This document shows, piece by piece, positions 21,345 to 52,849 of a stretch of 64,000 bases of DNA. The DNA comes from Candidatus Saccharimonadota bacterium (GTDB taxonomy: Bacteria > Patescibacteriota > Saccharimonadia > Saccharimonadales > UBA4665). The stretch's first letter is position 1; every line of letters starts with the position of its first letter. The notes under the pieces were generated by a model that worked only from the letters and a program-made list of their open reading frames with translations, searched no databases and was not told the DNA's origin. The DNA lies in assembly GCA_050436805.1 (NCBI GenBank), contig JBNQGE010000023.1, positions 10,606-74,605 of the forward strand. Reading direction: 5' to 3'. A program made the translations under genes and the position numbers.

Positions 21345-21435
21345 TTAGCTGTTTTACCATCTTCGTAGCGCGTTGACAAGCTTTGACGCGCTACGTTATA
21401 GTGGAGTTCATATACGAGCAGCCTGCGCGATAACT

Positions 21436-21984
21436 ATGATTACCATATTTTTTGAATCCCACTCCACAACCAAAGACAACGAAGCCGGAACGGCAGCCGG
21501 CTGGTATGATGTAGAACTTTCCGATCTTGGCAGGAGCCAAGCCAAGGAAATGGGATCACGCTATAAAGGTCAGTCGTTTGATGCGATATTTTGCTCCGAT
21601 TTGCAGCGTTCCTATAAAACCGCGCAGCTGGCGTTTGGCAACAAATATCCGATCATCCAGGATGTGCGGTTGCGGGAATGCAACTACGGCGATCTGAACC
21701 GTGCTCCCAAAGAAAACATTGAGGCTATGAAGGCTGACGCTGTTGAAATACCATTTCCACACGGCGAAAGCTACCGCGATACATCAGCTCGTATGAAAGC
21801 TTTTTTGGAAGATCTGCGCAAAAGCTACGACGGCAAGACAGTGATGATCATTGGTCATCGAGCCACACAATACGGTCTGGAAGAACACATTACAGGCATC
21901 GAACTTGCAGACGTTGTGACTGCTCCATGGCAGTGGCAGCCAGGCTGGAAATACGAACTGCAGGGTGGCGAATCCGCTCGGTGA
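21436..21984 (+). CDS. Histidine phosphatase (PGAM-like) family protein
   Basis: The start is placed at MITIFFESHSTT.. Family-typical motifs: LSDLGRSQA, SDLQRS, GHRAT. Confidence 0.6.
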   Translation: MITIFFESHSTTKDNEAGTAAGWYDVELSDLGRSQAKEMGSRYKGQSFDAIFCSDLQRSYKTAQLAFGNKYPIIQDVRLRECNYGDLNRAPKENIEAMKADAVEIPFPHGESYRDTSARMKAFLEDLRKSYDGKTVMIIGHRATQYGLEEHITGIELADVVTAPWQWQPGWKYELQGGESAR

Positions 21985-21985
21985 A

Positions 21986-22777
21986 CTAAGGGGCCAAAGG
22001 CGAGGGATATTCCCCTATATTTACGGGGTCGATGGCGCAAAATAGTGCCGTAGAGTGCTCTGAGCAGCCTAGGGTTGAGCCATCATGCATGGCATACGCT
22101 ACTGGTGCGTTAAGAATTGCTTCAATGTAATCTTCAGTCGGTGCTGCAAGCTTAAGCCAGTATACTTTCATGGAGCTGGGATCAGGGTGAGTTTCCATAA
22201 AACGTGCTCGCTCAGACCTTTGCGCGCCGCCAACGCTGTCTCTGTTGAATTCGGGCACAATTTGATGCCACCGCTCTCCTGGACCCATGTTGCCGATGAG
22301 CAATGATGCATCGGGATTTTCACGCGTGTCGATATGGCAGCCGACTTTCGCGGGGAGACCTGTTAGCTGGTTAATTTCCTGGAGATTTACGGAGACCGTC
22401 AACTGGTTTGCGTCATCCAGCCGACTCGTCATATATAACCCTCTGATGCCTGGAACGATTTCTTGATAGGGCTTATGCTCATCGAAACTACTCAGTGGCT
22501 CCTTGTTGCATTCTTCCAATAAGCGCGCACCGAGAATACGAGGCAGACGAACAAGCTGCATCGTCCTTTTGGTGTCGGTGCTGGCAGTTATGCCATCAAG
22601 CTCTTCGCTAGTTGCCAGGCGCGGTAGGGTAGCGGGTACGATAACTCGCGCGATATCTGACGCCAAGTAGCCTTGGCGTTCTGCCTCGGTAGGCTCCAAT
22701 ATTGTCAGCCCCGACGACACCATACAACGTTCTCGGAGCGCGTCACGATTTGTGCAGTGAATACCTATCTGCGCCAT
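21986..22777 (-). CDS. Hypothetical protein
   Basis: 263-aa ORF, apparently in an operon with the upstream Nudix gene. Confidence 0.45.
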   Translation of the reverse strand: MAQIGIHCTNRDALRERCMVSSGLTILEPTEAERQGYLASDIARVIVPATLPRLATSEELDGITASTDTKRTMQLVRLPRILGARLLEECNKEPLSSFDEHKPYQEIVPGIRGLYMTSRLDDANQLTVSVNLQEINQLTGLPAKVGCHIDTRENPDASLLIGNMGPGERWHQIVPEFNRDSVGGAQRSERARFMETHPDPSSMKVYWLKLAAPTEDYIEAILNAPVAYAMHDGSTLGCSEHSTALFCAIDPVNIGEYPSPLAP

Positions 22778-22793
22778 AGTTTACCCATATTAG

Positions 22794-23243
22794 CTAGCGC
22801 GAAACAATCTTTGTTGGCCTACCATTTGCTTGCTTGGTGAGATTTTCTGTACTCAAGAATTCAGGCAAGACTCGTCTGCCATCTGCAGGATTTATGAACT
22901 CGATCTCCTCAATTTCTGTCTCGCCGTGAGTTGTCTTGGCCAAGTCGATATCTAAGTAATCTTCGCTATTTGTGATATGAAAGAAAAACTCTAGGTGGTC
23001 TATTTCACCGTGAGTAAACTGCTGGACGTACAAAAGATCACCAACATGCGCCTCAACGCCTGTTTCCTCGAGCATTTCACGCTTCACGCCATCCAATAGC
23101 GATTCGCCATCGTCCAAGCCACCGCCAGGCAAGCACCAGTAGCTATTGTCTTGTTCTAGATGGGCTTTGTATTTTTTGAGTCGCACACATAAAAGCCTAC
23201 CCTCGTGCAATACAATGCCGCGTACTGAAATTCGTCGAGCCAT
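22794..23243 (-). CDS. Nudix hydrolase
   Basis: Complete Nudix box GGGLDDGESLLDGVKREMLEETGV. Confidence 0.8.
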   Translation of the reverse strand: MARRISVRGIVLHEGRLLCVRLKKYKAHLEQDNSYWCLPGGGLDDGESLLDGVKREMLEETGVEAHVGDLLYVQQFTHGEIDHLEFFFHITNSEDYLDIDLAKTTHGETEIEEIEFINPADGRRVLPEFLSTENLTKQANGRPTKIVSR

Positions 23244-25077: not shown

Positions 25078-25105
25078 TTGACAAATTGGCAAGTTTCCTT
25101 ACAAT
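25078..25105 (+). promoter_or_regulatory. Sigma70-type promoter of leader A
   Basis: TTGACA (25078-83), 16-nt spacer, TACAAT (25100-05). Confidence 0.55.
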
Positions 25106-25111
25106 ATATGA

Positions 25112-25355
25112 CATAGTCATGGTATAAAGCGTTAGAGTTCCAGTCACGATGGAACGAGCTGAGCGTCAAAATACGCTACGGAATCTAAACCGTAAAATAC
25201 AGTAGCCGTTGTCGCAGGAAACTGTGGAGCCGGTACCAAGAGCCTCTGAACGGTAACGTTCACTGGAATAAGGATGGGACCGCGGAAGGTCTTTTTTATT
25301 GCCTTTCGTTCCTTAGTAATCACTACATTAATGCATAATTAATACTAAGGATACT
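25112..25355 (+). promoter_or_regulatory. T-box riboswitch leader A: translational (SD-sequestering) type, predicted tRNA-His specific
   Basis: - Short Stem I: GUUCCA-[GUCACGA]-UGGAAC (25137-55), with CAC in the terminal loop.
- T-box core: AAGGA / 7-nt bulge UGGGACC / GCGGAAGG (25270-89), pairing with CCUUUCGU/UCCUU (25302-14).
- Alternative helix: UCCUUAGUA (25310-18) with UACUAAGGA (25343-51), which buries the SD 4 nt before ATG 25356.
- Support: covariation with leader B. Confidence 0.7.
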
Positions 25356-26030
25356 ATGGAAAATTATCTTACTTCTCGTAAAATTCTCACGTATGATGAC
25401 CTAAAAGCTCCCGAGTCTGGCACGAGTTCAGAGCCGCTTGTCGATGTTCGAACATATGACCCGCGAATTGTGGCGCAATACATCAAGGACGACATGCGCA
25501 AATATACCGGTGATCAGATTTACGTGCGAGATACACTTGCACAAAAGCTCGGTAACGTTAGTGCTGAACTTGCTGCATCAAATTTACGTCTTAAGGTTGT
25601 GTATGGCTATCGACACCCCGAGGTGCAGCAAGCATATTTCTCAAAACGACAAACAGAGATCCTTACCGAATTTCCCGATCTTTCGGGTGACGACTTAGAG
25701 CGATACACACACAACTTTGTTGCCGTTCCTGATGTAGCTGGCCACCCGGCAGGTGCAGCTGTGGATCTCACGATTATCGACATGTCCGGTGATGACCTAG
25801 ACATGGGAACGGGTATCGCCGACTACAGTGATCCGCAGCTCATTCGCACCTTTGATTCGCGCCTTTCTAATCAACAGCAAAATAATCGTTTAGTTCTGCA
25901 CGATCTGATGATAGACCAAGGCTTTGCACCATTTTATGGAGAATGGTGGCACTTTTCGTATGGCGACCGAGAATGGGCAGCCTTTAACCATAAAAAAACA
26001 GCACGTTACTGTGCTGTCGAATTAACGTAG
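25356..26030 (+). CDS. M15-family D-Ala-D-Ala dipeptidase-like (VanX/DdpX-like) metallopeptidase
   Basis: YGYRHPEVQQ.., ..VPDVAGHPAGAAVDLTI.. (SxHxxGxAxD-like) and ..GEWWHFSYGD. Confidence 0.7.
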   Translation: MENYLTSRKILTYDDLKAPESGTSSEPLVDVRTYDPRIVAQYIKDDMRKYTGDQIYVRDTLAQKLGNVSAELAASNLRLKVVYGYRHPEVQQAYFSKRQTEILTEFPDLSGDDLERYTHNFVAVPDVAGHPAGAAVDLTIIDMSGDDLDMGTGIADYSDPQLIRTFDSRLSNQQQNNRLVLHDLMIDQGFAPFYGEWWHFSYGDREWAAFNHKKTARYCAVELT

Positions 26031-26039
26031 TAAGGTCAG

Positions 26040-26083
26040 GTGGAGGCTACTCGGTAAGTGCTTGTAGCACGAGTAGCCTCCAC
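26040..26083. terminator. Perfect 14-bp hairpin between convergent genes (no U-tract)
   Basis: GTGGAGGCTACTCG-(16 nt)-CGAGTAGCCTCCAC. Confidence 0.45.
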
Positions 26084-26117
26084 ATGGCGAAAGGTTAGCG
26101 GTGTCCTGCGGGACGGA

Positions 26118-26711
26118 TCAGGACGGAAGCTGGGTAAGCGCGTCGGCGATGTCACCGAAGAGGTAGACCCGCTGTGTGCTCTCGGACCCATTGACGACCA
26201 CCTGGTCGGTGTCGCCCACGTTCTGTAGCTCGGGGATCTCCTGGGCACCGATCTTGCGGTACAGGTGGATCGAGTTCGAACCCATCGCGGCAGTACGGAA
26301 CGCGTAGTGCATGTCGCCGCGATGGCAGATGGTGAGCATCCGATGGCGGACCAGCTCGTAGGCGATACCACGACCGCGATGGGTGTTAATCACGCCCAGC
26401 TCAGACATGTACCAGGTCTTCTGCAGGTCTCCGGTGTAGTGCTCCGAATCGCTGAGAAACCTCTGCACCTCGTCCGGCGCCTTGAGAACAGGCAGGGCGC
26501 AGCCGAAGCCGACGACCTTTTCGTTCTCGATTGCCAGGATGACGATGCCGTCCTCGACGTGAGGGTGCCAGACGTGGTCAAGCACGTCGTCGTCGCTGTA
26601 CTGCTCGTTGTAGGGTGGACCGCCGAAAGCCTCCTGGTAGGCCCGAATGAAGCCGAGGCGGTCACTGGGAAGGGTGGTTTCGTCGCTGAGAACAGGCAGA
26701 TACCTGGTCAA
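26118..26711 (-). CDS. GNAT-family N-acetyltransferase (GC-rich)
   Basis: The acetyl-CoA motif-A region ..LGVINTHRGRGIAYELV.. is present. The gene overlaps the upstream gene by 4 nt. Confidence 0.65.
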   Translation of the reverse strand: MTRYLPVLSDETTLPSDRLGFIRAYQEAFGGPPYNEQYSDDDVLDHVWHPHVEDGIVILAIENEKVVGFGCALPVLKAPDEVQRFLSDSEHYTGDLQKTWYMSELGVINTHRGRGIAYELVRHRMLTICHRGDMHYAFRTAAMGSNSIHLYRKIGAQEIPELQNVGDTDQVVVNGSESTQRVYLFGDIADALTQLPS

Positions 26712-27466
26712 CGTACGACCTCCATTTCGCTCTGCAGGACGACAACGTCGTCACTGATGGTTGCCTTGATGGACTTGCCGGTGGGCTGGACGATGGATTG
26801 CACGCCCGTAACACGACCAACAGCGATGGTTCCAGACCCACACGATTCTTCGTAGAAGAACGTGTCGATGGCGCGGACCCAGACGACCGGGTGCATCCTG
26901 ATAGAATCACCTACGCGTTCGAACCACACCACGCCGACAGCATCGCGCGTGTCAAGGCTGAACTGCGTCATGATGTCACGGTGAGCAGTCTTGTACGTCG
27001 ACGGGTCAGACGGGAAGTCACCTTCGATCACGACGTGCACAATGCCGCCGAGGTCGACGATGTCAGCCAGCTGACCGTTTACGAGCGTGACGTGCTCGAC
27101 GTCAGTCGGCATGCCCGGGAATTCGCAGCGAACGTCGTAGAACTTGGCGTTCTGCTTGGCGACGACAGCGTGAACCACACCTTCGAAACCCGAGACCGTG
27201 AACGACAGATCGTTCAGGCCAAAGTGCTCCGAAAAAAGCAGTGCGGCAGCGCGCGTGGCGTTGCCACAGAACTCGCCACCGGCCATCTCGAAGTGGTGGT
27301 CGTTCAGGACCAGAAAGCCTGCCTGTTCGGCACCGTCCCGTTCCATGCTCTCGCCAAGCGCCTTGCCATCGTGCTCGTACTGAGCGCGGGGCAGGGGTTC
27401 TTCGATGATGCGGATGGCTGTTCCGTTACCACCTGCGGCGGTAACCAACGTGTCATGTGGGCTCAC
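26708..27466 (-). CDS. DapF-family (PLP-independent, two-Cys) amino-acid epimerase/racemase-like protein (GC-rich)
   Basis: GGNGT near the N-terminus, then MAGGEFCGNATR and EESCGSGT. These positions match the two catalytic Cys motifs of diaminopimelate-epimerase-fold enzymes. Confidence 0.5.
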   Translation of the reverse strand: MSPHDTLVTAAGGNGTAIRIIEEPLPRAQYEHDGKALGESMERDGAEQAGFLVLNDHHFEMAGGEFCGNATRAAALLFSEHFGLNDLSFTVSGFEGVVHAVVAKQNAKFYDVRCEFPGMPTDVEHVTLVNGQLADIVDLGGIVHVVIEGDFPSDPSTYKTAHRDIMTQFSLDTRDAVGVVWFERVGDSIRMHPVVWVRAIDTFFYEESCGSGTIAVGRVTGVQSIVQPTGKSIKATISDDVVVLQSEMEVVR

Positions 27467-27751
27467 GATCGTGCTCCTAACTTTTTTGTCTTGATTTGGC
27501 TAACCTAGCCGCCGTAATTTTAGCATGGATGTCAATGCATACACAAGCATAGGGGTTTTCCAAAATACTGCCCAGCTTACGCTCATTTTATAATTCCTAT
27601 AAGTATATACTAATGGCATATCTGCGCTATTGTAATTGTCGTAAATTTGACTTATACCCATTTTAATTTATAATTTCGCGCATGGTTCATTGAGTCAACC
27701 GACTCAGTACATTGAGAACCATAGCAGATTGAGAGAGGAACAAACACAGTC

Positions 27752-29071
27752 ATGGCACAGGTACAGGCCCGCACCGCGAGTGGACTCGTAGAGTACACCC
27801 CTGCGGAACAGCTCGAATTCAACCGCCTCATGGAGATCATCCGTGAGGTCTACGAACGATACGGCTTCGCGCCGATCGACACCACGGTGCTTGAACTGTC
27901 CGAGGTGCTCCTTGCCAAGGACGCCGGCGAGACGAGCAAAGAGGTCTACCGCTTCCAGCGGAACAACGACCCCGAAGGCACCGACTTCACGATGCGCTTC
28001 GACCTCACCGTACCCCTGGCACGCTACGTCGCGCAGAACGAATCCAAGCTGGTCTTCCCGTTCAGCCGTTACGCCTTCGGCAAGGTCTACCGTGCAGAAC
28101 GCGCACAGGCCGGTAGGTTCAGGGAGTTCTGGCAATGCGACATCGACACCATCGGCAGCGACAGTCCGATGACCGATGCACAGTTCCCGGCGGTCATCAA
28201 CGAGATCTTCGAACGCTTCGGCTTCGGTGAGTTCACCATCCGTCTGAACAACCGCATGGTTCTCAACGGGTTCTTCGAAGGCATCGGCCTCAAAGACTCG
28301 GCAGCCAACGTGCTCCGAGTCGTCGACAAGATGGAGAAGATCTCGCAAGACGAGTTCGTCGATGAGCTGCAGAGGCTCGGCCTCAACGACAAGCAGGTGG
28401 ACCAGGTCCTCAACTTCACCGCGATCAGCGGTGATAACGACGAGGTCCTCGCCCAGCTGGAAGGCCTGAGCATCAGCAACGGTACTCTCACCGAGGGCAT
28501 CGCCAAGCTCAAGAGCGTCATCCAAGCCCTGCGCGTGATGGAGGTACCCGAGCGTCGGTTCAAGATCGACCTAAAGATAGCCCGAGGGCTGGACTACTAC
28601 ACGGGTACCGTGTACGAGACCGTGCTCAACGACTACCCGCAGGTCGGCAGCGTCTGCTCCGGCGGCCGCTACGACGATCTGGCAGGCCTGTACACCAAGA
28701 CCAGCCTGCCCGGCGTCGGCATCTCCATCGGCCTGACGCGCCTGTTCTACGCGCTCAGCAAGCTCGGCGTCATCAAGGCCGAGGCTCAGTCTCCGGCGCG
28801 CGTGATGGTCATGCCATTCAGCGCCGAGCAGTTCGACGTGGCGCTCAACGTTGCCGCGACGGTTCGCAAGGCCGGTATCAACACCGTGTTCTACGGTGAA
28901 CCGGGCAAGGTACAGAAGAAGATGCGCTACGCCGACAAGATGGGATTCACCTACGTGGTCCAGATCGGAGCACGCGAAGCCGAGAACGGCGAGGCAACCA
29001 TCAAGGACATGGCCAATGGTGGAGTCACCACAATCGCCCTCGGCGACCTGGTGGAGTTCATCTCCAAGTAA
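27752..29071 (+). CDS. hisS: Histidine--tRNA ligase
   Basis: Class II motifs (..KVYRAERAQAGRFREFWQCDID.., RGLDYYTG, SGGRYDDL) plus a C-terminal anticodon-binding domain. Codon usage is markedly GC3-rich. Confidence 0.9.
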   Translation: MAQVQARTASGLVEYTPAEQLEFNRLMEIIREVYERYGFAPIDTTVLELSEVLLAKDAGETSKEVYRFQRNNDPEGTDFTMRFDLTVPLARYVAQNESKLVFPFSRYAFGKVYRAERAQAGRFREFWQCDIDTIGSDSPMTDAQFPAVINEIFERFGFGEFTIRLNNRMVLNGFFEGIGLKDSAANVLRVVDKMEKISQDEFVDELQRLGLNDKQVDQVLNFTAISGDNDEVLAQLEGLSISNGTLTEGIAKLKSVIQALRVMEVPERRFKIDLKIARGLDYYTGTVYETVLNDYPQVGSVCSGGRYDDLAGLYTKTSLPGVGISIGLTRLFYALSKLGVIKAEAQSPARVMVMPFSAEQFDVALNVAATVRKAGINTVFYGEPGKVQKKMRYADKMGFTYVVQIGAREAENGEATIKDMANGGVTTIALGDLVEFISK

Positions 29072-29111
29072 CACTCGTTCGTCACGAAAGTGACACCATC
29101 TCCACTCTGCG

Positions 29112-29162: not shown

Positions 29163-30065
29163 TCAGACAGTCTTATTTTGCCCCTCACTAAGAGGGGCAT
29201 TTTTTATACGTCCTAAATAGTCTGCAAAATCACGCGGCTCAACACGGTCAATGTGTGCCGGGAAGATGCTTGCATCCACGTTAGGGTTGCGGACTACTAC
29301 CGCCTTGATCCCCTCAATACTAAGCATGCCTAGGTCTGGTAGACTATCGCCGCCTACCAATATTGCTTCGCGGCGCAAACCGAGTATCGAAGCGATGCGC
29401 AATACGGCGGCACTTTTGTCAGCATTGGCTGGCAAAAAATCCAAGGTCTTAGTACCCGAAAAGCGGGTCACATGAGTCGTAAGTGACACGTCTTTTGTGA
29501 CTGGAGTATCTGTGTTTCGAAACTTAACCGCAACCATGCCTGGCTGCGCGTCTTCTATAGCACGAGCAAGCGAGTTGATAGGCCCGCACCGTGTTATGCC
29601 AGCCTCCGTGTTTTGTGACTGGTTCCCATGCTGTGAGGAAGATGGAAACCACAAGGTGCGTGGCTGTGCAGGATATTGACCATAAAAAGCAACGCGCAAA
29701 AAGGGCAGATCACTAATAAGTGACATGAGCTCAGTTTGTTCATGTAAGCTCAACGCCGTATGGTGAACGCTTTTATAGCACGATGCATCAGTGTAGTCGG
29801 TGCTTGTCACAAGCTGAGTCCCGTACTCAAGCCCTACCGGAAGTCCAGCACTCGGCACAAGCTCAGGATTTTTGCGAACTACATCTTGGTATAGGCCAAC
29901 GCCCCGAGCAGTTACTTCCGTAAAAGAAAATCGACGATGTTCGGGGTCGAGCACGTATGAAAGTCCGTCATGCAGGACGTGAGTGCCTGAGGCAACTAGT
30001 GTTCTATCAATATCAAAAAATGCAGCCTCAACGTCGGGCATACTCTGTAATTCTTTTTCTGTCAT
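29163..30065 (-). CDS. HAD-superfamily (Cof-like) phosphatase
   Basis: Motif I FFDIDRTLV and motif IV GGDSLPDLGM. Confidence 0.6.
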   Translation of the reverse strand: MTEKELQSMPDVEAAFFDIDRTLVASGTHVLHDGLSYVLDPEHRRFSFTEVTARGVGLYQDVVRKNPELVPSAGLPVGLEYGTQLVTSTDYTDASCYKSVHHTALSLHEQTELMSLISDLPFLRVAFYGQYPAQPRTLWFPSSSQHGNQSQNTEAGITRCGPINSLARAIEDAQPGMVAVKFRNTDTPVTKDVSLTTHVTRFSGTKTLDFLPANADKSAAVLRIASILGLRREAILVGGDSLPDLGMLSIEGIKAVVVRNPNVDASIFPAHIDRVEPRDFADYLGRIKNAPLSEGQNKTV

Positions 30066-30109: not shown

Positions 30110-30139
30110 TTGACAATGTCGGTGGAAGTTTCCTAGAAT
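30110..30139 (+). promoter_or_regulatory. Sigma70-type promoter of leader B
   Basis: TTGACA (30110-15), 18-nt spacer, TAGAAT (30134-39). Confidence 0.5.
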
Positions 30140-30145
30140 TAGTGT

Positions 30146-30375
30146 AAAGCGTTAGAGTTCCGGTCACGACGGAGCAAGCTGAGTGTCAAAATGCACTACG
30201 GAAACTAAACCGTAAAATACAGTAGCCGAAATCGCGTTTACGTAGAGCCGGTGCCGAGAGCCCACAGTCAGTAATGGCTATGGGAATAAGGATGGGACCG
30301 CGGAAGGTCTTTTTTATTGCCTTTCGTTCCTTAGATACTATTTTACTAATTTTTTAGTGTATCTAAGGAGTTCTT
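30146..30375 (+). promoter_or_regulatory. T-box riboswitch leader B: translational type, predicted tRNA-His specific
   Basis: - Stem I: GUUCCG-[GUCACGA]-CGGAGC (30157-75).
- T-box core: AAGGA/UGGGACC/GCGGAAGG (30288-307) with CCUUUCGU/UCCUU (30320-32).
- Sequestrator: UCCUUAGAUAC (30328-38) with GUAUCUAAGGA (30359-69), upstream of ATG 30376. Confidence 0.7.
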
Positions 30376-31053
30376 ATGACACGCGAGACCCGTCCTCTCT
30401 GGCCCGAAGCTACTGAAGACATGCAAAATGCTGCTGAACTATTTGAACAGTTTAAGCGTACAAAAACAAAAATTGCTATTCAAAAAGATGGCGAACTAAC
30501 TGACGTCTCTCGGGCTATTCTTGCCGACGTTTTTGATATCGTTGTACCAGCCAAAGATCCCAAGGATCGTCGACTGGTCTCTGTCTCAGAAGACGGTGAA
30601 TACGGTTTTGTATACGCCCGTAACAAGGGCATCTGCGAACTAGTCGCAAACGGCGCCGTGGATTTGGCGGTTGTAGGTACCGATAGATTAATCGAAGATC
30701 AAGCCGAAGACCGTGTGGATATTGTGGCATCCTACAAAGATGCATACTCCTGGCCGCTTGTGCTGGCGACACCCATAGGCAGTGGTATCGAAACGCCTCA
30801 GCAGATACGGCGCATAGCGACACAGTACCCAGTCATTACCCAGCGCTATTTTGAGACCATGGGGATAGAAGAGATCGACATTATTCAGACTGTCGGCGGC
30901 ACCGAATTATATCCGTACCTTGACTATAATGGACCCATCGACGCTGTTGTTGACATGTCAGTAAGCGGCCAATCGCTGGCCGCCCACAACCTAACTCCAT
31001 GGACGCCAATTATTGGTGACGTTTATCCGGTGCTTATCCAGGCTCAGAAGTAA
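30376..31053 (+). CDS. hisG: ATP phosphoribosyltransferase, short (HisG-S) form
   Basis: 225 aa. KIAIQKDGEL, GAVDLAVVGTDRLIE, RIATQYPVITQRYFE and GGTELYP..DAVVDMSVSGQSLAAHNL align with HisG blocks as I remember them (for example the Thermotoga enzyme). Confidence 0.65.
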   Translation: MTRETRPLWPEATEDMQNAAELFEQFKRTKTKIAIQKDGELTDVSRAILADVFDIVVPAKDPKDRRLVSVSEDGEYGFVYARNKGICELVANGAVDLAVVGTDRLIEDQAEDRVDIVASYKDAYSWPLVLATPIGSGIETPQQIRRIATQYPVITQRYFETMGIEEIDIIQTVGGTELYPYLDYNGPIDAVVDMSVSGQSLAAHNLTPWTPIIGDVYPVLIQAQK

Positions 31054-31055: not shown

Positions 31056-31907
31056 TTAGGCTAAACCAGTAAGCCTAGCCAACAGATCATTCCTAGCTTG
31101 TTCTTTAAAGATAACTTTTCCGGAATCAGGATCAGCCGTAAGTACCTGATACTCCTTGTTGAGTGCAGGCAGGCAAGGTGTCTTCTGGCCGTCTTCGGCA
31201 CTCACATAGGAACGATAGTCGGTGTACGCGGACACGTCCGCCATATAAACAACGCGCATCAAATCCAGGTATCGATCTTGATATTTCTCTGGAGTAAACT
31301 GCTTAAGCTGATCAATTTCTGCCTGCGCGACAGACTCTTCAATGCCTTTGTAACCTTTCAGCGCGCCCCCTAAAATGTCGTGGCTCAATAGCAATCGGAT
31401 CGTTTGCTTGTCGTCGGCGTCAAGCGTCGTTTCAGCAATCGAGGCCAAAAGATTATCCACGACAGCTGCATTATAGGGTGACTGTTCGCGACGATTACCA
31501 CAATGTGCAATACACAATGACTTGCCCATATCCTGTAGCAGCAAAGTGGTGCGAAGTAGTTTTCTATCCTGAGGATCGGGATAGACATCAGCGTAATCGG
31601 CCTCGAAACCATTAAGCACTGCCTGCGTGTGCTCATGCAGGCGATAGCTTTCACGAACGCCTGTCTTGCCGCCGAGCATGTGGGCGATTACAGGGACAGT
31701 CTGTGCCATAGCGCTCACCGTCTGGTAGGAGTCGAGGGGTGTGGGAGCCTCAAAGGATTGCACGAGTGCGTCAAAGCTTCCGTCCTGCACAAGCAGTTCG
31801 CCTTTTGCTAATGACCGCAGCACTCCCTCGGCAAATTCTCGTGACAAATCATCTTCAATGATTAGGTTTGGGTTAGCAACATTGTTGCGAGTAGGTTCAA
31901 ATTCCAT
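31056..31907 (-). CDS. Hypothetical protein with a degenerate HD-domain signature
   Basis: ..YRLHEHTQAV...LLLQDMGKSL.. follows the HD pattern H...(H->Q)D. It is the last gene of a 3-gene operon. Confidence 0.45.
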   Translation of the reverse strand: MEFEPTRNNVANPNLIIEDDLSREFAEGVLRSLAKGELLVQDGSFDALVQSFEAPTPLDSYQTVSAMAQTVPVIAHMLGGKTGVRESYRLHEHTQAVLNGFEADYADVYPDPQDRKLLRTTLLLQDMGKSLCIAHCGNRREQSPYNAAVVDNLLASIAETTLDADDKQTIRLLLSHDILGGALKGYKGIEESVAQAEIDQLKQFTPEKYQDRYLDLMRVVYMADVSAYTDYRSYVSAEDGQKTPCLPALNKEYQVLTADPDSGKVIFKEQARNDLLARLTGLA

Positions 31908-33109
31908 TAATGGTCCTCTAGGTAGCTCGGTAATGATTCGTGTTCGATGTAGTGCCGAAGATCGCTTTCAACGATTGCCAAGTTGCCTGTTGGCAGAATT
32001 CGCTGCTTGTAATCTTTGTAGGTAGCCTCATCAAAGTGACGCTGAGCGATACGGGAAGTGCGGTCAGCGAGTGCCATATCGCCAGCCTGACGAGCAGACT
32101 CAGAGTAGGCATGTAAAGCCATCGTGCCGTAGAGACGTAGGCTCAGGCTATCCTCCTGTATGACAAGCCGTTCATGCTGGGCTACAAAAGTATCTGGCTG
32201 TTTGAGAATTTCCTTGTGGTCATACGCAAACTGGCCACGTGTCACGCCACTTGTAATCGCATTTCGTGGTGCCAACGTCAGCATACCCTGCAAATAAGAC
32301 ACCATGTAGTCTGTTTGTTCTTTTGTAGGCACTATAGATTGCTGCACCAACTCGCGTACAGGCATGGGTGTTGCCCCAACCTGGTTCACGATATCATCAG
32401 GAGAACTGATAGGATAAAATTGGCCGTGCCGCATCAGATATTTAGGGATCGAAAGTGGTTCAATAACTTCTTCGAACTCACGGGAAGGGAAGTCGCTCGT
32501 AGAGCCGCCAGGCTCATCCTGGCAATAGTATATTCCAGCTAATCCGTCCATTTTGACATTAATTTCGTTGTAAAGACGTCGTGCCTGCAACGCATGCGCC
32601 ATTTGTTCGGATGGTCGCACACCTTCAAAGCGTGATGAAAATTGCGAGAATATTTTTCCTTGTTTGACGCTTGTAGTCGCATCGTAGGGATACGCCGTTT
32701 GAACTGTGCCTGCCCCTACCACTATGCCCCAGTTACCGTACAAGTTGTCACTACTGTCTCCTGCGGTAATACTCGATGCGCAGACGATCTGCAGTGGACG
32801 TAGCAAAATATCAAAGATACGAACACCCTTGAAAGATCGTGCATTTAAAGGTCTAAACGGCCCTAAATTACCATACGCACGCACTGCACTTACTAGTGCA
32901 ACATCATGGTCTTCGGCAATAGATTGGACATCAAATGCTCGAGTATCTTCGTCACTGTACGTTTGCATCTGTGCGTAAAAACTAGCCTCCAGCTGCTGCG
33001 CTTCATCGGGATGCTGCAGCTGATTAGCTTGCTCGCGCAGCGCTGTAACGCCATCTATAAAATAGGTGTTTGCGTATGACTCAAGCGGCTCTCTATTCAT
33101 ATACTTCAT
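31907..33109 (-). CDS. Hypothetical protein (400 aa)
   Basis: Long ORF whose boundaries overlap both neighbouring genes, indicating translational coupling. Confidence 0.5.
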   Translation of the reverse strand: MKYMNREPLESYANTYFIDGVTALREQANQLQHPDEAQQLEASFYAQMQTYSDEDTRAFDVQSIAEDHDVALVSAVRAYGNLGPFRPLNARSFKGVRIFDILLRPLQIVCASSITAGDSSDNLYGNWGIVVGAGTVQTAYPYDATTSVKQGKIFSQFSSRFEGVRPSEQMAHALQARRLYNEINVKMDGLAGIYYCQDEPGGSTSDFPSREFEEVIEPLSIPKYLMRHGQFYPISSPDDIVNQVGATPMPVRELVQQSIVPTKEQTDYMVSYLQGMLTLAPRNAITSGVTRGQFAYDHKEILKQPDTFVAQHERLVIQEDSLSLRLYGTMALHAYSESARQAGDMALADRTSRIAQRHFDEATYKDYKQRILPTGNLAIVESDLRHYIEHESLPSYLEDH

Positions 33110-34301
33110 CCTTTATTATTCTTTCTATTGCATCGATAGGCCCAGAAGCCAATGGGTAGCGAATGGTGTTTAGGTCCTGCTTATCGCGCGCCGGGTAGAA
33201 CACACGTGCGATACCGTTGAGTACCGACAAGTCACCCCACTGGATTCCCGCTCCACGAGCTTTTTCCAAGCTTGTCCAAAATGTATGTGCTGTTGTAGTT
33301 GCATACTCGAAAAGTTTGCGCCTAAAACTAGGCGTCATCTCATCTTCTGTTATATCTACTTGCCAGGGGTAGTTGCCCGTAATAGCATCGACGGACACCG
33401 CAACGTTAACCGCAAAGCGTCCTACGCTAAAGGCATACGTGGGAGCGCCCACCATTGTCTCAACACCAGGATGGCGCCACCCGATAGCTCGCCCACCGAG
33501 CGTGGGGATCATATCCGTTTGGTCGATACATTTTGCCGGTGCACTATTAAAGCGCATCGCAGCGATTGCATTAATATTCGCTTCTCGGAAGTTCTCCGCA
33601 CCAGACTGGTTTAAGGCACCGAGAATGACTGACAGACCATTATAGTCTCGGCCTCGTACATTGGCGTTGCCAAACGTATTTATAATACTCTTGCCGCTGT
33701 TTGCATAGCCATCAACTAATGCAACATCAATAGGAGCAAGCTGCTGGTGCGCACCAATCATACTCTTGATTTCCGCCATCTGCCGAGCGAGGGGTTTTCC
33801 AGCACCATTGTGTACGCTGACCTTTTGGACAAATCTATTTACATAATCACGGTCATTGCACTCCAAGTCTATAAACGGCCTATTAACATCTACGAGCGAC
33901 ACCCGCGACTCTTGGTATACATAATCAGCGTGTTGCTGGGAGGCAATGATCGGATCGAGCGATATGATAAAGGGCATACGTTCTTGATAAAACGAGTGCT
34001 GTTTAAACCGTTGGATGCTTTTATGGACATCTGCACGAACACGGCGTGCATCGACTAGCACCACAGGCTTCTCGTAATGCTCTTCGAGAAGGCCCCGAAG
34101 CTCTCCATTATTCTCACCGTACCAATCCTCAAACTCGTGTGGTCTCTCAATGCCAAAAGCATTAGCTATAAGTTGATGGCGCAAGGGTACGTCAGCTTGT
34201 ACGCATATAGTCGAGCTATCTATCACCGGATAAGATACGGTCTCTGGCTCAGATTCTAGGCTCATTATGGGTTTCTCAATTTCGTTTATGCTTTTACACA
34301 T
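33093..34301 (-). CDS. Hypothetical protein (402 aa)
   Basis: Long ORF. IDVALVDGYANSGKSI only loosely resembles a PRPP-binding loop, so I make no functional call. Confidence 0.5.
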   Translation of the reverse strand: MCKSINEIEKPIMSLESEPETVSYPVIDSSTICVQADVPLRHQLIANAFGIERPHEFEDWYGENNGELRGLLEEHYEKPVVLVDARRVRADVHKSIQRFKQHSFYQERMPFIISLDPIIASQQHADYVYQESRVSLVDVNRPFIDLECNDRDYVNRFVQKVSVHNGAGKPLARQMAEIKSMIGAHQQLAPIDVALVDGYANSGKSIINTFGNANVRGRDYNGLSVILGALNQSGAENFREANINAIAAMRFNSAPAKCIDQTDMIPTLGGRAIGWRHPGVETMVGAPTYAFSVGRFAVNVAVSVDAITGNYPWQVDITEDEMTPSFRRKLFEYATTTAHTFWTSLEKARGAGIQWGDLSVLNGIARVFYPARDKQDLNTIRYPLASGPIDAIERIIKDEVYE

Positions 34302-42263: not shown

Positions 42264-42935
42264 ATGGTCAAATATCCGGAATATAGCAAAGAACTCACGC
42301 AGCTTTTGAGTGAAGACCAAGAAGTCTGGAAATCTTTCTGGCGTGATAATTTTGATAGACAGAATACATCCGAGTTCCACAAGGAATTTGAAAAGGTGCG
42401 AGCCGAGCAGCAAGGTCAGTCAAAACGAATGTTGGAAATTCTGCGTCAAGTCGATAGGCCTACGTTGACTAACATCGGTGCCGATGCAGCACAAGCCGTG
42501 TCAATTCTGGCGCTGCATGATTCACTTGATGTATTACGTTCAGTGCTCGATATTTTTATAGACTGCTATGAGAAAGACAAGACAGACGCATACTGCCAGG
42601 CGATTCCGTCGATGACAGATAGAGTAAGGATTTTGGAGCGCAAACCTCAAGTGTTCGGTACACAGTGGGAACTCGATGAGCATAATTATCCATTTCTACC
42701 GACAGTTGAGGATTTTGAACATGTTAATGAGCGGCGTGAAGCATATGGCATAGAGCCGCTGCGGTGGCCAAAGTCGCTCGCCATTCCAGAAGATCGACAA
42801 CCCTGGCTCAAAAAGCCGTTGTCCGGATCAGTTATGCGCGATATTACTGACAAAGAATTCCAGCAAAAATATCAGAGCTATCTAGCCAATCCTAATCGTT
42901 CGAAAAGTGAAATTGAAGGTGGCGTTAACTTATAG
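42264..42935 (+). CDS. Hypothetical protein
   Basis: 223-aa ORF with no motif I recognise. Confidence 0.5.
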   Translation: MVKYPEYSKELTQLLSEDQEVWKSFWRDNFDRQNTSEFHKEFEKVRAEQQGQSKRMLEILRQVDRPTLTNIGADAAQAVSILALHDSLDVLRSVLDIFIDCYEKDKTDAYCQAIPSMTDRVRILERKPQVFGTQWELDEHNYPFLPTVEDFEHVNERREAYGIEPLRWPKSLAIPEDRQPWLKKPLSGSVMRDITDKEFQQKYQSYLANPNRSKSEIEGGVNL

Positions 42936-43336
42936 TCACTAAGTTTGTTTATGGGCACCCATTCCAATGTGGCAAGATCATCTGTCGGCTGCAGCTTTAT
43001 GTCTTTCGCCTCCACTAATAGGTCAACACGATAAACATTGAACTTCATATTGCAAAGTACGTGTTCGCCGGTCTCCTTGAGTGTCTTTTCGGTTTGGCCA
43101 GAGCCTTGGTCGTCAGCCAGAGCCACACTGGCGCCAGAAATATCAATGCCGACTTCTTCTAAAATCTCGCGTTGCAGAGCAATTTCTTTTGTCTCGTCTT
43201 TTTCGACACCACCGCCCGGGATGTGCCAACAATCAACATACACACCACCACTTTTGGGATCTTTCATACCCATAAGTAGCTTGCCGTCTTTGGAAAAGAT
43301 GAGCGCAGATACGATTTCGCGGTCGATTGTTTTCAT
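42878..43336 (-). CDS. Nudix hydrolase
   Basis: Nudix box GGGVEKDETKEIALQREILEEVGI. The start is placed at ATG 43336 (MKTIDRE..), 4 nt after the upstream stop. Confidence 0.8.
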   Translation of the reverse strand: MKTIDREIVSALIFSKDGKLLMGMKDPKSGGVYVDCWHIPGGGVEKDETKEIALQREILEEVGIDISGASVALADDQGSGQTEKTLKETGEHVLCNMKFNVYRVDLLVEAKDIKLQPTDDLATLEWVPINKLSDYKLTPPSISLFERLGLAR

Positions 43337-43340
43337 GGCT

Positions 43341-43835
43341 TTATGATACAGGTTTGTACTCCTCAACAAATGCCTGGCCATATGCTACATCAAGTTGTAG
43401 CGTTAATTCTTTAGGCTCCCCTCGCACGATTGGAAGCATTGATCGTATTGGTCCCCAGTGAGTTACAACGGCCACGGAATCATAGCCGAGAGTAGCAACA
43501 TGCGCTAAGGCCGAGCGCAATCGCTCTTCCATTTGCTGCCAGGATTCGCCGTTTGGCGGCACAGAAGTATACCTTTCTTCGGTGGTAAGTTTCTCGAGTT
43601 CGGCAGCAATTTGTGGCCATTCCCAATCAGACCAATCGCCAAAATTTCGCTCTTCAAGACCTTGTTGAGCAATACTTGGCGCATTTAAGGCAAGCGATAG
43701 GGCTTCTGCTGCAAATACTGCACGAGATTGTGTGGAATGAACGACAGCTCGCACCTCTTCATTACGACACGTTCCAATAACATGAGCAAGCTGCTCTTGG
43801 CCATTTGGGCTTAGTGCATCTTCATCACCGGGCAA
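43341..43835 (-). CDS. Histidine phosphatase family protein lacking a canonical start for its catalytic N-terminus
   Basis: The in-frame upstream sequence encodes (I)KLVIIRHPETNREAGLPGDED.., which carries the RH catalytic motif. It begins at ATC 43884, preceded by GAGGAG. No ATG, GTG or TTG lies before ATG 43835. Confidence 0.55.
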   Translation of the reverse strand: MPGDEDALSPNGQEQLAHVIGTCRNEEVRAVVHSTQSRAVFAAEALSLALNAPSIAQQGLEERNFGDWSDWEWPQIAAELEKLTTEERYTSVPPNGESWQQMEERLRSALAHVATLGYDSVAVVTHWGPIRSMLPIVRGEPKELTLQLDVAYGQAFVEEYKPVS

Positions 43836-44181: not shown

Positions 44182-45771
44182 ATGGGGCAAACTAACGCTG
44201 TCATACTTGCGCGCGTATCCAGTAAGGCGCAGGAAGATGAAGGATACTCACTTGATTCACAAGTGAAGTTGCTTACAGGCTACTGTCAAACAAAAGGGTT
44301 CAAAGTCGTTAAAGTCTTCAAGATTGCTGAAACAGCGTCAAAGCAGCAAAGCCGTAAGGTTTTCACTGAAATGTTGCATTACATCTCAAAGAACGATATC
44401 TACCACCTAGCGGTCGAGAAGACTGATCGATTTACGCGTAATATGCGGGATGCTGTCGCAATTGACGATTGGCTAGAACAAGATGAGGAACGACGCTTGC
44501 ATGCCGTCAAAGAAAATCTACTTGTTCATAAGAATGCTAAATCTGACGTTAAGTTTATGTGGAACATTCACTTATCAGTTGCCAAGAAGTACACGGACAA
44601 CCTACGTGAAGAGGCTATGAAAGGATGGGCTGAAAAGCTTGCACAAGGTTGGCTGCCAGCACCTCCGCCACCAGGATACATTACAGTCACTCGAAGTGGT
44701 AAGCGCATCCATATCATTGATAAGGCTACTGTTAGTATTATGCGTAAAGTATTCCGAATCTATCTTGAGCCTAACCACTCAATACTCACAATTACAGAGT
44801 TCATGAAAAACAACGGTGTAGTCACACGTAAGGGGCGGCCATGTGGCAAAAGCTATGTCCACAAAATATTGAGTAATCCATTTTATATTGGTGTTAACCA
44901 TTTCGATGGCAAGGACTATCCAGGTGCGCAAGAACCGCTTATTAGCAAAGAACTATTTAACGCGGTACAAAAGAAATTGCATAACAAGCAGCCAATACTA
45001 CGAGCGCGCCATAACCCGGTACTTAAAAACATCATCCGCTGCCAAAATTGCGGCGCAGCCGTTACTTGGGAGCGTCACAAAGAACGCTATTATGGTGCAT
45101 GCCAGCGCAAACAACCGACATGCAAGGGATTAAAGTTCCTGCGTGAAGATCGTGCCGAGGAGCTAGTTATGGAGACACTCAAAAAGTTTGTAAGCCCGTC
45201 GCAGGAGATCATTGCCTGGACGAGCGAGGCAATCCGAGCAGAGTCACAAAACGATATTCAATACTACGAGCAGACTGCCGCGCTTATCAACAGCAAGCTT
45301 AGTCGCATCGATCTCATGGATGAAACGTTATACGACGACAAGTTGGCTGGTGACATCACCAAAGAACGCTACGAAGCCAAACACGAGCGGCTCTCGAGCG
45401 AGAAGGCTAGTTTGCTCGATCAACTAGGCAAGCTCGAGGAACAACAAAAATCAGACTTTGAAGGCGGTCTAACGATACTAGAACTATCCCAAAAAGCCGC
45501 AGAAATATACGCAAGCAAGGTTCCAGAACAAAAACGCGTGATAATAACCGAACTCTTCGAAAAACTAACATCGAACGGCGACGCTTTGTCTGTTACGTAC
45601 ACAAAACTCACGAATGCAATCGCCCAAAAGACAGCAGAAACGGTTCAATTCTTGGAAGGACAGAAAATGACTAACCGAACTTTTGAAAAAGCCTTCGCTA
45701 CATCTGTTAGCGAAGGCAATTCCGAGATTATAAATCAATTATGTCCAATATGGCAGTCCTGTCTGAACTAA
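44182..45771 (+). CDS. Large serine recombinase (integrase)
   Basis: N-terminal resolvase domain (AVILARVSSKAQEDEGYSLDSQ), a recombinase domain, the Cys cluster CQNCG..CQRKQPTC and a coiled-coil tail. AGGAGAG SD. The stop codon TAA 45769-71 lies inside repeat 'g'. Confidence 0.85.
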   Translation: MGQTNAVILARVSSKAQEDEGYSLDSQVKLLTGYCQTKGFKVVKVFKIAETASKQQSRKVFTEMLHYISKNDIYHLAVEKTDRFTRNMRDAVAIDDWLEQDEERRLHAVKENLLVHKNAKSDVKFMWNIHLSVAKKYTDNLREEAMKGWAEKLAQGWLPAPPPPGYITVTRSGKRIHIIDKATVSIMRKVFRIYLEPNHSILTITEFMKNNGVVTRKGRPCGKSYVHKILSNPFYIGVNHFDGKDYPGAQEPLISKELFNAVQKKLHNKQPILRARHNPVLKNIIRCQNCGAAVTWERHKERYYGACQRKQPTCKGLKFLREDRAEELVMETLKKFVSPSQEIIAWTSEAIRAESQNDIQYYEQTAALINSKLSRIDLMDETLYDDKLAGDITKERYEAKHERLSSEKASLLDQLGKLEEQQKSDFEGGLTILELSQKAAEIYASKVPEQKRVIITELFEKLTSNGDALSVTYTKLTNAIAQKTAETVQFLEGQKMTNRTFEKAFATSVSEGNSEIINQLCPIWQSCLN

Positions 45772-52597: not shown

Positions 52598-52849
52598 CTA
52601 TTCAATTCCTGTATAGTGACAGTACTTCTTGAATTCTGTTTGGTCAGCCGGTTCTAGACCTGCATGTTTACCATCCAAGTTATAGTAAAACCCTTGCTTT
52701 GCCTTAATGGGCTGCGTGCATTGGTAAATAAAGAGCTGCTTATCTTCATAGGTGGTAAGCTTCTGCTGGGCGCGGGCATAGGATATTAGGATACCGATTA
52801 GTGATAGGCTCGTTGCGGCTATTACCGTAATAATTATTCGCCTGGCCAT
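52598..52849 (-). CDS. Small single-TM protein
   Basis: The start is placed at ATG 52849 (MARRIIITVIAATSLSLIGILI..). Confidence 0.4.
   Translation of the reverse strand: MARRIIITVIAATSLSLIGILISYARAQQKLTTYEDKQLFIYQCTQPIKAKQGFYYNLDGKHAGLEPADQTEFKKYCHYTGIE

Follow-up and report, generated by a model that had tools for sequence, protein, structure and literature searches.

A candidate translational T-box of the ultrashort Stem I type, specific for tRNA-His, upstream of a short-form hisG gene in a Saccharimonadota bacterium

The hisG leader and its structure

The 64,000-nt stretch of Candidatus Saccharimonadota DNA analyzed here (hereafter the window), part of a metagenome-assembled genome, carries a hisG gene for a short-form ATP phosphoribosyltransferase (ATP-PRT) and, in the 310-bp gap between hisG and a divergent HAD phosphatase gene, an RNA leader of ~230 nt that we call leader B. 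An original prediction, made from the sequence of the window, had read leader B as a histidine T-box paralogous to a second leader, leader A, and hisG as an orphan gene under its control. The two T-box units and hisG are laid out as follows.

30110-30139, plus strand: sigma-70-type promoter of leader B (TTGACA at 30110-30115, 18-nt spacer, TAGAAT at 30134-30139; 11 of 12 consensus matches)
30143-30334, plus strand: leader B, His T-box, reaching from the base with its kink-turn (K-turn)-like motif as far as the 3' strand of A1 (Rfam 27.7 bits, family covariance model 212.7 bits, covariation)
30376-31053, plus strand: hisG, encoding a divergent short-form ATP-PRT of 225 aa (Pfam, TIGR00070, AlphaFold/Foldseek)
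25078-25355, plus strand: paralogous unit A, made up of a sigma-70-type promoter at 25078-25105 (TTGACA-16-TACAAT; 11 of 12 consensus matches), T-box leader A at 25123-25316 and a sequestrator at 25310-25351

The predicted start of leader B transcription coincides with the conserved AAAGCG that opens the leader. Both leaders were found where they had been placed originally, and the earlier coordinates map exactly to columns of the alignment described below. Two copies of the T-box core GGATGGGACCGCG, and no more, are present in the window, compared with 0.06 copies expected by chance. A scan of the window with Rfam at the gathering threshold reported no T-box and only a tRNA. In a permissive scan the Rfam T-box model matched both leaders end to end at 27.7 bits (E = 0.0029), with most of the model's Stem I deleted in both matches. 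Routine annotation misses leader B because this score compares with a gathering score of 93. Of the 80 loci that a metagenome scan with AAGGATGGNACCGCG returned, L043 and L059 alone carry the T-box class of leader B (loci labeled L are stretches of relatives' DNA); almost all the rest are either Firmicutes-type T-boxes of the ordinary kind or GC-rich coding DNA that matched by chance. A scan of genome contigs gave only six loci. The comparison rests on 15 distinct hisG loci, namely the window, L002, L004-L008, L011, L014-L017, and L141-L143, with hisG neighborhoods of 20 kb each.

For the structure test, 14 and then 18 leaders were aligned with MAFFT and scored against an explicit structure, with slid pairing partners and 500 shuffles as controls. 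Standard pairs fill 96.2% of the cells in the 18-leader alignment, compared with 32-43% when the partners are slid, and both-sided (compensatory) changes are seen at 27 out of 53 pairs, compared with 3-9 in the slid controls. None of the 500 shuffles equaled the observed value on any of five measures. Four leaders left out of model building scored 135-219 bits with the family covariance model. The original argument that covariation between A and B reflects a real structure is borne out by these numbers, and its count of changed pairs was too low: compensatory differences between A and B are also found in hairpin 4 (columns 101/109) and at four pairs of Stem III (columns 136/149, 137/148, 138/147, and 140/145). 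One of the pairs named at the time, in the second hairpin (25164/25175 in A and 30184/30195 in B, C-G to U-A), does covary, with UA in nine leaders, CG in eight and GC in one of the 18. The other, a Stem I pair (25142/25150 and 30162/30170, A-U to G-C), is not conserved in the family. It is the loop-closing position, with a standard pair in 6 out of 18 leaders and A.C or C.C in 12, and where the pair forms the loop is the 7-nt anticodon-loop-like GUCACGA. A-type and B-type leaders are already separate before the split of the window and L008 lineages. Judged from conservation and covariation, leader B is a real tRNA-His T-box riboswitch of the translational, ultrashort-Stem-I type, histidine-specific and, as first proposed, a paralog of leader A, with CAC and UGGGACC invariant and covariation across the 18 leaders. 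Its elements are listed below, with the number of pairs that show compensatory changes.

30148-30180, plus strand: Stem I module (4 of 5 Stem I pairs compensatory)
30148-30150 with 30178-30180, plus strand: base helix of Stem I, AGC/GCU
30155-30156 with 30176-30177, plus strand: GA/AA K-turn-like motif
30157-30161 with 30171-30175, plus strand: Stem I, 5 bp
30162-30170, plus strand: terminal specifier loop GGUCACGAC, with the His codon CAC at 30165-30167
30182-30197, plus strand: miniature Stem II of 5 bp (30182-30186 with 30193-30197) with a conserved CAAAAU loop (5 of 5 pairs compensatory)
30198-30223, plus strand: Stem IIA/B pseudoknot, in which IIA is ACGG/CCGU (30198-30201 with 30210-30213) and loop 30204-30207 pairs with 30220-30223 (4 of 4 pairs covary)
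30225-30252, plus strand: extra hairpin H4 between the pseudoknot and Stem III, with outer helix GCCG/CGGU and inner helix UCGCG/CGU.GA
30261-30284, plus strand: Stem III, with a GUAA loop at 30271-30274 (9 of 9 pairs compensatory; most differences between A and B lie here)
30288-30332, plus strand: discriminator (anti-sequestrator), -14.8 kcal/mol
30288-30292 with 30328-30332, plus strand: helix A1, AAGGA with UCCUU
30293-30299, plus strand: T-box bulge UGGGACC, invariant in the 18 leaders
30300-30308 with 30319-30327, plus strand: extended helix A2, 9 bp, with a U-rich loop
30327-30370, plus strand: Shine-Dalgarno (SD) sequestrator hairpin, UCCUUAGAUAC at 30328-30338 with GUAUCUAAGGA at 30359-30369

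The long Stem I and the elbow-binding platform are absent from leader B, in which Stem I consists of 5 bp and a terminal loop. The K-turn layout AGC-NNNN-GA...RA-GCU was placed at the base of Stem I by the Rfam alignment and is read from sequence alone. Stem II is a 16-nt hairpin with neither an S-turn nor an internal loop of the AGUA/GAA type, and the bases AAAU of its loop are invariant in the 18 leaders. An F-box-like CCGUAA is present in Stem IIA (the F-box of the N. farcinica T-box is CCGUCA; PMC7583486), and the pseudoknot occurs in the variants ACU/AGU, GCU/AGC, GUC/GAC, and ACC/GGU. Hairpin H4, which stands outside the canonical T-box plan, is mostly invariant, with a both-sided change in 2 of its 9 pairs (A5 columns 90/146 in one sequence; columns 101/134, GC to AU, in two sequences). 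RNAalifold had paired GGGA with UCCU and CC (columns 123-124) with the GG of AAGGA; this pairing was replaced by the canonical A1 and bulge arrangement, which is equally invariant.

Codon specificity and control of the Shine-Dalgarno sequence

None of the 18 leaders departs from the CAC specifier or from the G immediately 3' of it. A tRNA-His gene is found in L011 (8706-8782), within a histidine gene island and 1.2 kb upstream of the T-box and hisG; it has the anticodon GUG, an encoded G-1, discriminator base C73, and an encoded CCA. Since the anticodon is GUG and the discriminator base is C73, both the CAC specifier and the G of the UGGN bulge match tRNA-His, the UGGG of the bulge being complementary to C73-C-C-A.

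The hisG SD sequence, AAGGAG, is located at 30365-30370, 5 nt before the ATG at 30376. The sequestrator hairpin of leader B has a predicted energy of -17.0 kcal/mol (z = -6.2), is present in the minimum-energy fold of the full leader, and is more stable than the anti-sequestrator, with UCCUU being common to helix A1 and the SD hairpin. In leader A the sequestrator is formed by UCCUUAGUA (25310-25318, plus strand) and UACUAAGGA (25343-25351), and equivalent hairpins cover the SD sequence or the start codon in nearly every relative's leader. The sequestrators of A and B thus read as originally claimed, and the fold energies support control by SD sequestration.

The genes under this T-box class were then compared across the relatives. 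Their counterparts in the window, together with the gene divergent from hisG, are listed here.

25356-26030, plus strand: M15 (VanX/DdpX-like) peptidase gene, under leader A (Pfam Peptidase_M15, 56.3 bits)
27752-29071, plus strand: hisS, encoding histidyl-tRNA synthetase (HisRS); lacks a T-box and has a separate promoter at 27647-27674
29163-30065, minus strand: HAD phosphatase gene, divergent from hisG

All 15 distinct hisG loci with upstream DNA carry the T-box. The same class also precedes the M15 peptidase gene in the window, L008, and L043, a hisG-M15 operon in L141, and a short open reading frame (ORF) followed by hisS in L059. The genomic context needs one correction, in that leader A controls the M15 (VanX-like) peptidase gene and not hisS, which has a promoter of its own. 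A degenerate T-box copy stands before the M15 gene of L017 (5664-5798). Its first ~90 nt are identical to the L017 hisG leader, an internal deletion has removed Stem III and the T-box bulge, and the SD-masking hairpin is kept, which indicates recent leader duplication and decay. We concluded that hisG, hisS, and the M15 peptidase gene are the regulon of the T-box class of leader B, a histidine-starvation response.

The T-box-controlled M15 gene (25356-27466 region) adjoins a GNAT gene and a racemase-like gene of the CntK_N family on the opposite strand. The M15/GNAT/CntK-like trio recurs in L004, L008, L016, and L017, and M15 with the CntK-like gene is also found in L043. The make-up of this gene set suggests histidine salvage from D-His or His-containing dipeptides.

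The proposed mechanism is as follows. Transcription would begin just past the near-consensus promoter, and the 5' half of the leader would display CAC on the 5-bp Stem I atop the K-turn-like base. In the default state UCCUUAG would pair with the SD region and block initiation at hisG. Uncharged tRNA-His (GUG, C73) would bind the CAC loop, and its 3' CCCA would pair with the UGGG of the bulge and stabilize the anti-sequestrator (A1 and A2); the latter would take up UCCUU and leave the SD sequence free, such that HisG would be translated only when tRNA-His charging falls. That translation awaits the accumulation of uncharged tRNA-His is indicated by the bistable 3' region, the codon and discriminator match, the regulon, and the established T-box mechanism (PMC7583486). 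The binding of tRNA by leader B itself is predicted by analogy with that mechanism.

Both leaders also contain a mini-hairpin, GGGACC/GGUCU, that uses the T-box bulge and is followed by U6 (25276-25299 and 30294-30317); it may be a pause site or a mini-terminator relieved by pairing of the tRNA 3' end. An alternative explanation is that transcription attenuation is the leader's main or an additional mode of action, with the GGGACC/GGUCY hairpin and U5-7 within A2 serving as a pause or terminator unless the tRNA 3' end occupies UGGG. A terminator scan does flag the mini-hairpin in leader A (25276-25293) as well as in leader B (30294-30311), its predicted energy being -7.4 to -8.1 kcal/mol, and the U-run within the A2 "loop" is conserved in 18 out of 18 leaders. 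However, the stem is short and weak, the same scan reports nine such sites compared with 5.9 expected by chance, and the bases concerned are all invariant, which allows no test by covariation. Insertions in A2 are typical of translational T-boxes, and masking of the SD sequence or start codon in nearly every leader also argues for control of translation. We consider attenuation unlikely. The explanation that we regard as likely overall is that leader B is a tRNA-His-sensing, translational T-box of the ultrashort-Stem-I type that gates a probably competent short-form HisG as part of a histidine-starvation regulon.

Several observations weigh against the T-box part of this explanation. The Rfam score of the leaders lies far under the gathering score. 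Helix A1 and most of A2 are invariant, and covariation is uninformative for both. In tRNA-His, C73 pairs with G-1, and this pair must open before the bulge can pair. Stem II lacks the S-turn used by other Stem II-bearing T-boxes to reinforce codon-anticodon pairing, and the elbow platform is missing as well. The GGGACC/GGUCY hairpin with the U-run in A2 is a possible transcriptional component. The elbow platform is also absent from most translational T-boxes (PMC7583486), and the invariant A-rich loop of Stem II may substitute for the S-turn purines.

Among known systems, leader B resembles the actinobacterial ileS T-boxes (M. tuberculosis, N. farcinica, and M. smegmatis). In both, the specifier lies in the loop that caps a short Stem I, which has no elbow platform and stands on a K-turn or K-turn-like base; the IIA/B pseudoknot includes an F-box, Stem III is present, and the UGGN bulge separates A1 from a lengthened A2. 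Both also use an SD sequestrator rather than a terminator. Leader B differs in specificity (His, with CAC/UGGG, instead of Ile) and in its host, Saccharibacteria of the candidate phyla radiation (CPR). In the ileS T-boxes Stem II spans ~70 nt and carries an S-turn, which docks against the codon-anticodon helix, whereas in leader B it is a 5-bp helix with a CAAAAU loop. The class of leader B also has an extra conserved hairpin before Stem III, and its targets are hisG, hisS, and the M15 peptidase gene. The ileS elements belong to an "ultrashort/intermediate Stem I" class of T-boxes, reportedly described by Sherwood et al. in 2015. Firmicutes His T-boxes, said to have been treated by Vitreschak in 2008 and Gutierrez-Preciado in 2009, reportedly lie upstream of hisS and his operons (e.g., Lactococcus hisZG...). 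Leader B would share with these elements (RF00230) the uncharged tRNA-His effector, the logic of control, and hisS and hisG-led operons as targets. The Firmicutes elements are said to have a long Stem I, to act on transcription through intrinsic terminators, and to score above the Rfam gathering threshold; leader B, in contrast, scores 27.7 against 93 and masks the SD sequence. Published translational T-boxes have a short or "ultrashort" Stem I without an elbow platform, carry the specifier in a hairpin loop, frequently have A2 insertions, and have been described as essentially Ile-specific and actinobacterial (PMC7583486; TBDB preprint; PMC3896937). The 5' untranslated region of C. glutamicum hisDCB, in the phylum that hosts Saccharibacteria, resembles leader B in the proposed tRNA-His-dependent SD sequestration before a his gene. 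Unlike leader B, which has every core T-box feature, the hisDCB element has no Stem II or Stem III, and its T-box sequence is poorly conserved; the reviewers themselves doubt its status (PMC3896937).

Our literature searches found no paper tying T-boxes or hisG to Saccharibacteria or Patescibacteria. T-boxes are considered characteristic of Firmicutes and Actinobacteria, and some are also known from Chloroflexi and Deinococcus-Thermus. Leader B is a new structural T-box variant in a phylum for which we found no T-box report, and with a 5-bp Stem I, a 5-bp Stem II, and a pseudoknot it is among the most compact decoding modules described. If the assignment is right, it would offer a minimal system for asking how a T-box grips the anticodon without elbow contact or S-turn. 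Because the family covariance model recovers these leaders cleanly where the Rfam model misses them, a CPR-wide survey is now possible.

HisG and the fate of its product

The gene downstream of leader B encodes a short-form HisG, as first proposed. Its product scores 76.3 bits with PF01634 (cutoff 25.5) and 94.7 bits with the equivalog TIGR00070 (cutoff 75.75), and all of its PDB sequence matches are ATP-PRTs. An AlphaFold model based on the family alignment has a predicted local distance difference test (pLDDT) score of 88, and ATP-PRTs make up all 50 of its best Foldseek matches, with template modeling (TM) scores of 0.7-0.78 to the short-form chains of P. arcticus and A. baumannii and the C. 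jejuni core. The TIGR00070 score and the Foldseek matches exclude an outcome that had been named originally as one that would refute the assignment, namely that the protein is a non-catalytic periplasmic-binding-fold protein. The predicted fold consists of two domains plus an additional N-terminal helix (residues 13-28), and the C-terminal regulatory domain is missing. The window HisG has 58 homologs of 41-89% identity from soil, rhizosphere, and other metagenomes, and the named ones are Saccharibacteria or Saccharimonadales. Its identity to the HisG::HisE fusion encoded in a canonical-looking CPR his operon is only 26%, which sets it apart as a distinct subfamily.

The protein shares fold, length class, and the TM scores given above with HisG_S of the HisG_S-HisZ hetero-octamer (P. 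arcticus, A. baumannii, L. lactis, and T. maritima), together with the phosphoribosyl pyrophosphate (PRPP) loop, the Arg56 equivalent, and the GxD...E, ATxYP, and GxTE motifs. Unlike HisG_S, to which it is 25-30% identical, it has the extra N-terminal helix and E, A, S, or G in place of the Arg32 equivalent; no hisZ lies near hisG genes of the window type, a full-length hisS is linked to them, and a T-box is always in front. The statement that a short HisG requires HisZ had been too strong, as P. arcticus HisG_S is active alone, only slower (PMC9734150). Its Arg32 and Arg56 have been reported to be important for catalysis (PMC9734150). Columns kept in the 19 HisG family members compared are QKxG, R82-N-K, GxD...E, ATQYP, GxTE, and the PRPP loop D...D..(T/S)G.(S/T)L, and the P. 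arcticus Arg56 equivalent is R or K in 17 of them. The Arg32 equivalent is never Arg (E in 13, A in 4, S in 1, and G in 1 of the 19, by a provisional mapping), which speaks against a competent enzyme. M. tuberculosis HisG has Ala at the Arg32 position and yet is active. The window and L008 proteins are 89% identical with a nonsynonymous divergence (dN) of 0.065, the lowest among ten neighboring genes, and with synonymous sites saturated (synonymous difference, pS, 0.77). The window HisG is very probably a constrained, active enzyme, its activity being predicted from conserved sequence.

These data also bear on the possibility that the pathway was lost and hisG is decaying, with its T-box as a fossil. 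Leaders of this kind can decay, as the L017 M15 leader without Stem III and T-box bulge illustrates, and his gene content is patchy across the relatives. The hisG ORF is, however, intact in 59 homologs, the low dN with saturated synonymous sites is the lowest of its neighbors, the catalytic columns are invariant, and the T-box is intact at 15 out of 15 hisG loci, with compensatory changes. A pseudogene or relic was rejected on the dN/dS and conservation data and appears highly improbable.

Next, we looked for further histidine genes. In agreement with the original prediction, the window holds no hisZ and no other his gene: Pfam searches of ~60 ORFs and tblastn with E. coli HisGDCBHAFI found only hisG, and tblastn with CPR-derived HisE, HisI, HisC, HisD, histidinol-phosphatase (HolPase), LOG, and histidine ammonia-lyase (HAL) gave no match in the window besides hisG. 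The window contains no HisRS paralog as a HisZ candidate, and the adjacent hisS is bona fide (TIGR00442 at 390 bits, cutoff 286.75; the hisZ model falls below its own cutoff). No further canonical his gene occurs in 11 out of the 15 hisG neighborhoods. The other four, L006 and L141-L143, have his-pathway genes beside hisG. In L006 a LOG-like gene, hisD, and a HAD gene are divergent from the T-box and hisG, and the HAD protein shares 55% identity with the histidinol-phosphatase half of E. coli HisB. A LOG-hisD pair is found in L141 and L142, and a 109-aa PRA-PH (hisE) gene lies 2 kb upstream of hisG in L143. The 169-aa protein of L006 had been considered as the imidazoleglycerol-phosphate dehydratase (IGPD) half of HisB; Pfam assigns it to the HAD (histidinol-phosphatase) half. 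The label "orphan" thus stands for the window, and probably for its lineage, and fails for the HisG subfamily, which has hisD, HolPase, or hisE beside hisG in these four loci.

The nearest relatives of the L006-type HisD are overwhelmingly from CPR bacteria (Saccharimonadales, Moranbacteria, Peregrinibacteria, and Gracilibacteria), and the CPR contexts of HisD include hisS-hisD-hisC-HolPase (L139) and hisG::hisE-hisD-hisC-HolPase-hisI (L140). The CPR histidinol dehydrogenase clade is widespread, often with hisC and a HAD histidinol-phosphatase gene and once with hisG::hisE and hisI. Genes for hisD, hisC, and histidinol-phosphatase are widely kept in CPR bacteria, and partial histidine pathways seem common among them. 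As a proxy for whole genomes, contigs were compared between the HisG and HisD match lists, the latter holding the best 120 HisD relatives per query. The only contigs common to the two lists are three short or medium ones already known to carry both genes.

Where HisG product goes is something we infer from gene content, and three readings were weighed. The one we favor, though tentatively, is that HisG makes phosphoribosyl-ATP (PR-ATP) as the gated entry to a fragmentary histidine route that is patchily kept in CPR bacteria; such a route would be completed by genes outside the window, by unrecognized enzymes, or by exchange with the host. We rank it above a non-biosynthetic role, possibly with HisRS, and the latter above a complete canonical pathway elsewhere in the genome. 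The searches above count against the favored reading, as do the following results. The hisA, hisF, hisH, and IGPD half of hisB genes were not seen in any CPR locus examined. None of the long HisG contigs (1,087,535, 1,130,810, 669,327, 556,572, 529,808, 420,030, and 320,271 nt) is among the best 120 HisD relatives for either query. Two genome surveys state that Saccharibacteria, large or small in genome size, are without amino-acid biosynthesis modules (PMC11659515; PMC12592800).

In the ordinary case, the rest of the histidine pathway would be scattered elsewhere in the genome and the T-box would gate the first committed step, like in the his operons of Firmicutes. The ordinary case would account for the strong purifying selection on HisG and for histidine-starvation control, which is as expected for a biosynthetic gene; the HisG subfamily adjoins hisD and HolPase (L006), hisD (L141 and L142), and hisE (L143), and other CPR genomes have hisGE-hisD-hisC-HolPase-hisI or hisS-hisD-hisC-HolPase operons. 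However, no other his gene is found in the 64-kb window or in 11 of the 15 neighborhoods, CPR-type HisD matches among the best 120 relatives are not linked to the 1.09 and 1.13 Mb HisG contigs, no complete amino-acid module is reported in any Saccharibacteria, and hisA, hisF, hisH, and IGPD are unseen in all loci. Because the gene searches, the comparison of HisG and HisD lists, and the surveys agree, a complete canonical his pathway in the lineage of the window is unlikely, and we give the scattered-pathway explanation a low probability.

The gene neighborhoods bear on the non-biosynthetic role. In group 1 (window, L004, L008, L016, and L017) a solitary T-box-hisG unit has M15, GNAT, the CntK-like gene, and hisS nearby. 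In group 2 (L005, L006, L007, L011, L014, and L143) the order on one strand is T-box-hisG-SLOG-(PfkB)-HAD-(PRTase-like unknown)-hisS, where PRTase denotes phosphoribosyltransferase, and hisS is 33-38% identical to the group-1 enzyme. A gene of the histidine/phenylalanine ammonia-lyase family is near hisG in six loci, and in L015, the most distant relative, an inosine-uridine nucleoside hydrolase gene follows hisG. Across the 15 loci hisG is linked to hisS in 12, at 10 kb or less, and to ribose/nucleotide-handling enzymes.

A true orphan with a new job could take two forms. HisG would act with the linked HisRS as a proto-HisZ, modulating charging or sensing histidine, or PR-ATP would feed neighboring enzymes (SLOG/LOG, PRTase-like, PfkB, and HAD) that turn it into a starvation signal or recycle the ribose-phosphate. 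The linkage to hisS, co-operonic in group 2, L017, and L143, the SLOG gene directly after hisG in seven loci, and the LOG-like gene before hisD in three are in line with such a role. So are the weak, sub-threshold PRTase matches of genes flanking hisS (unk298, unk313, and unk353), the divergence of the HisG subfamily (Arg32 equivalent replaced, extra N-terminal helix), and its strong constraint though the pathway is missing. However, the catalytic motifs are those of a normal ATP-PRT, hisE beside hisG in L143 and hisD in three loci indicate that the product enters the canonical route in some lineages at least, and the nucleoside and ribose genes are equally readable as PRPP supply for a normal HisG. 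We regard a new job of this kind as doubtful. It is slightly less probable still that HisG is kept under tRNA-His control in bacteria that no longer make histidine and works there outside biosynthesis, in a HisRS complex or through use of PR-ATP. A HisG-HisRS complex, with which the strong hisG-hisS linkage is compatible, might be a living analogue of the ancestral HisRS/HisZ-HisG partnership.

The ribose and nucleotide genes near hisG could provide ribose-5-phosphate/PRPP supply for HisG or disposal of the by-product aminoimidazole carboxamide ribonucleotide (AICAR). Either would matter for a purine auxotroph that spends one scavenged purine ring per histidine made. If the regulon is as proposed, soil and rhizosphere Saccharibacteria, described as unable to make amino acids, keep tRNA-His-gated hisG, hisS, and peptidase genes; histidine limitation would be a physiological signal in the epibiotic lifestyle, and histidine pathways in CPR bacteria would be partial or shared.

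Other genes of the window

The region 26000-29100, which holds the GNAT gene, the CntK-like gene of the histidine racemase family, and hisS, has a GC content of 59-62%, compared with 45-50% in the flanks. Its pS relative to L008 is 0.39-0.42, compared with 0.70-0.82 for the neighbors. The composition and divergence of this block suggest that it is probably a horizontally acquired segment. Its hisS, which has no T-box, may have displaced an ancestral T-box-controlled hisS of the group-2 type (33-38% identical).

On the minus strand at 31056-34301, three genes for soluble proteins of 283, 400, and 402 aa are convergent with hisG, and Pfam and NCBIfam assigned no family to any of the three. All three adjoin hisG in L008 and L011, and the 400/402-aa pair does so in L007 and L016 as well. 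The 402-aa protein contains a PRPP-loop-like VALVDGYANSGKS, and the 283-aa protein an HD-like HEHT...LLLQDMGK.

A tRNA-Trp(CCA) gene lies at 53403-53478 on the minus strand. It is followed on the plus strand by two genes, one for a family-3 solute-binding protein (53545-54537) of the polar amino-acid ABC type and one for a 247-aa protein that Pfam does not match (region to 55289). The unit at 53403-55289, which has no T-box, is possibly an amino-acid uptake system.

Four NUDIX hydrolase genes occur in the 64 kb (21373-23243, 42878-43835, 47849-48253, and 52834-53388), one of them overlapping a His_Phos_1 (histidine-phosphatase-superfamily) gene and another ~0.8 kb from a second His_Phos_1 gene; the nucleotide-pyrophosphatase gene content of the window is unusually dense. 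A large serine recombinase gene (44182-45771) may mark a mobile element. The minus-strand gene at 2504-5743 encodes a protein of 1079 aa that contains DUF4082, an RGI-lyase-like beta-sheet domain, and three fibronectin-III repeats; it is probably a surface or adhesion protein of the epibiont.

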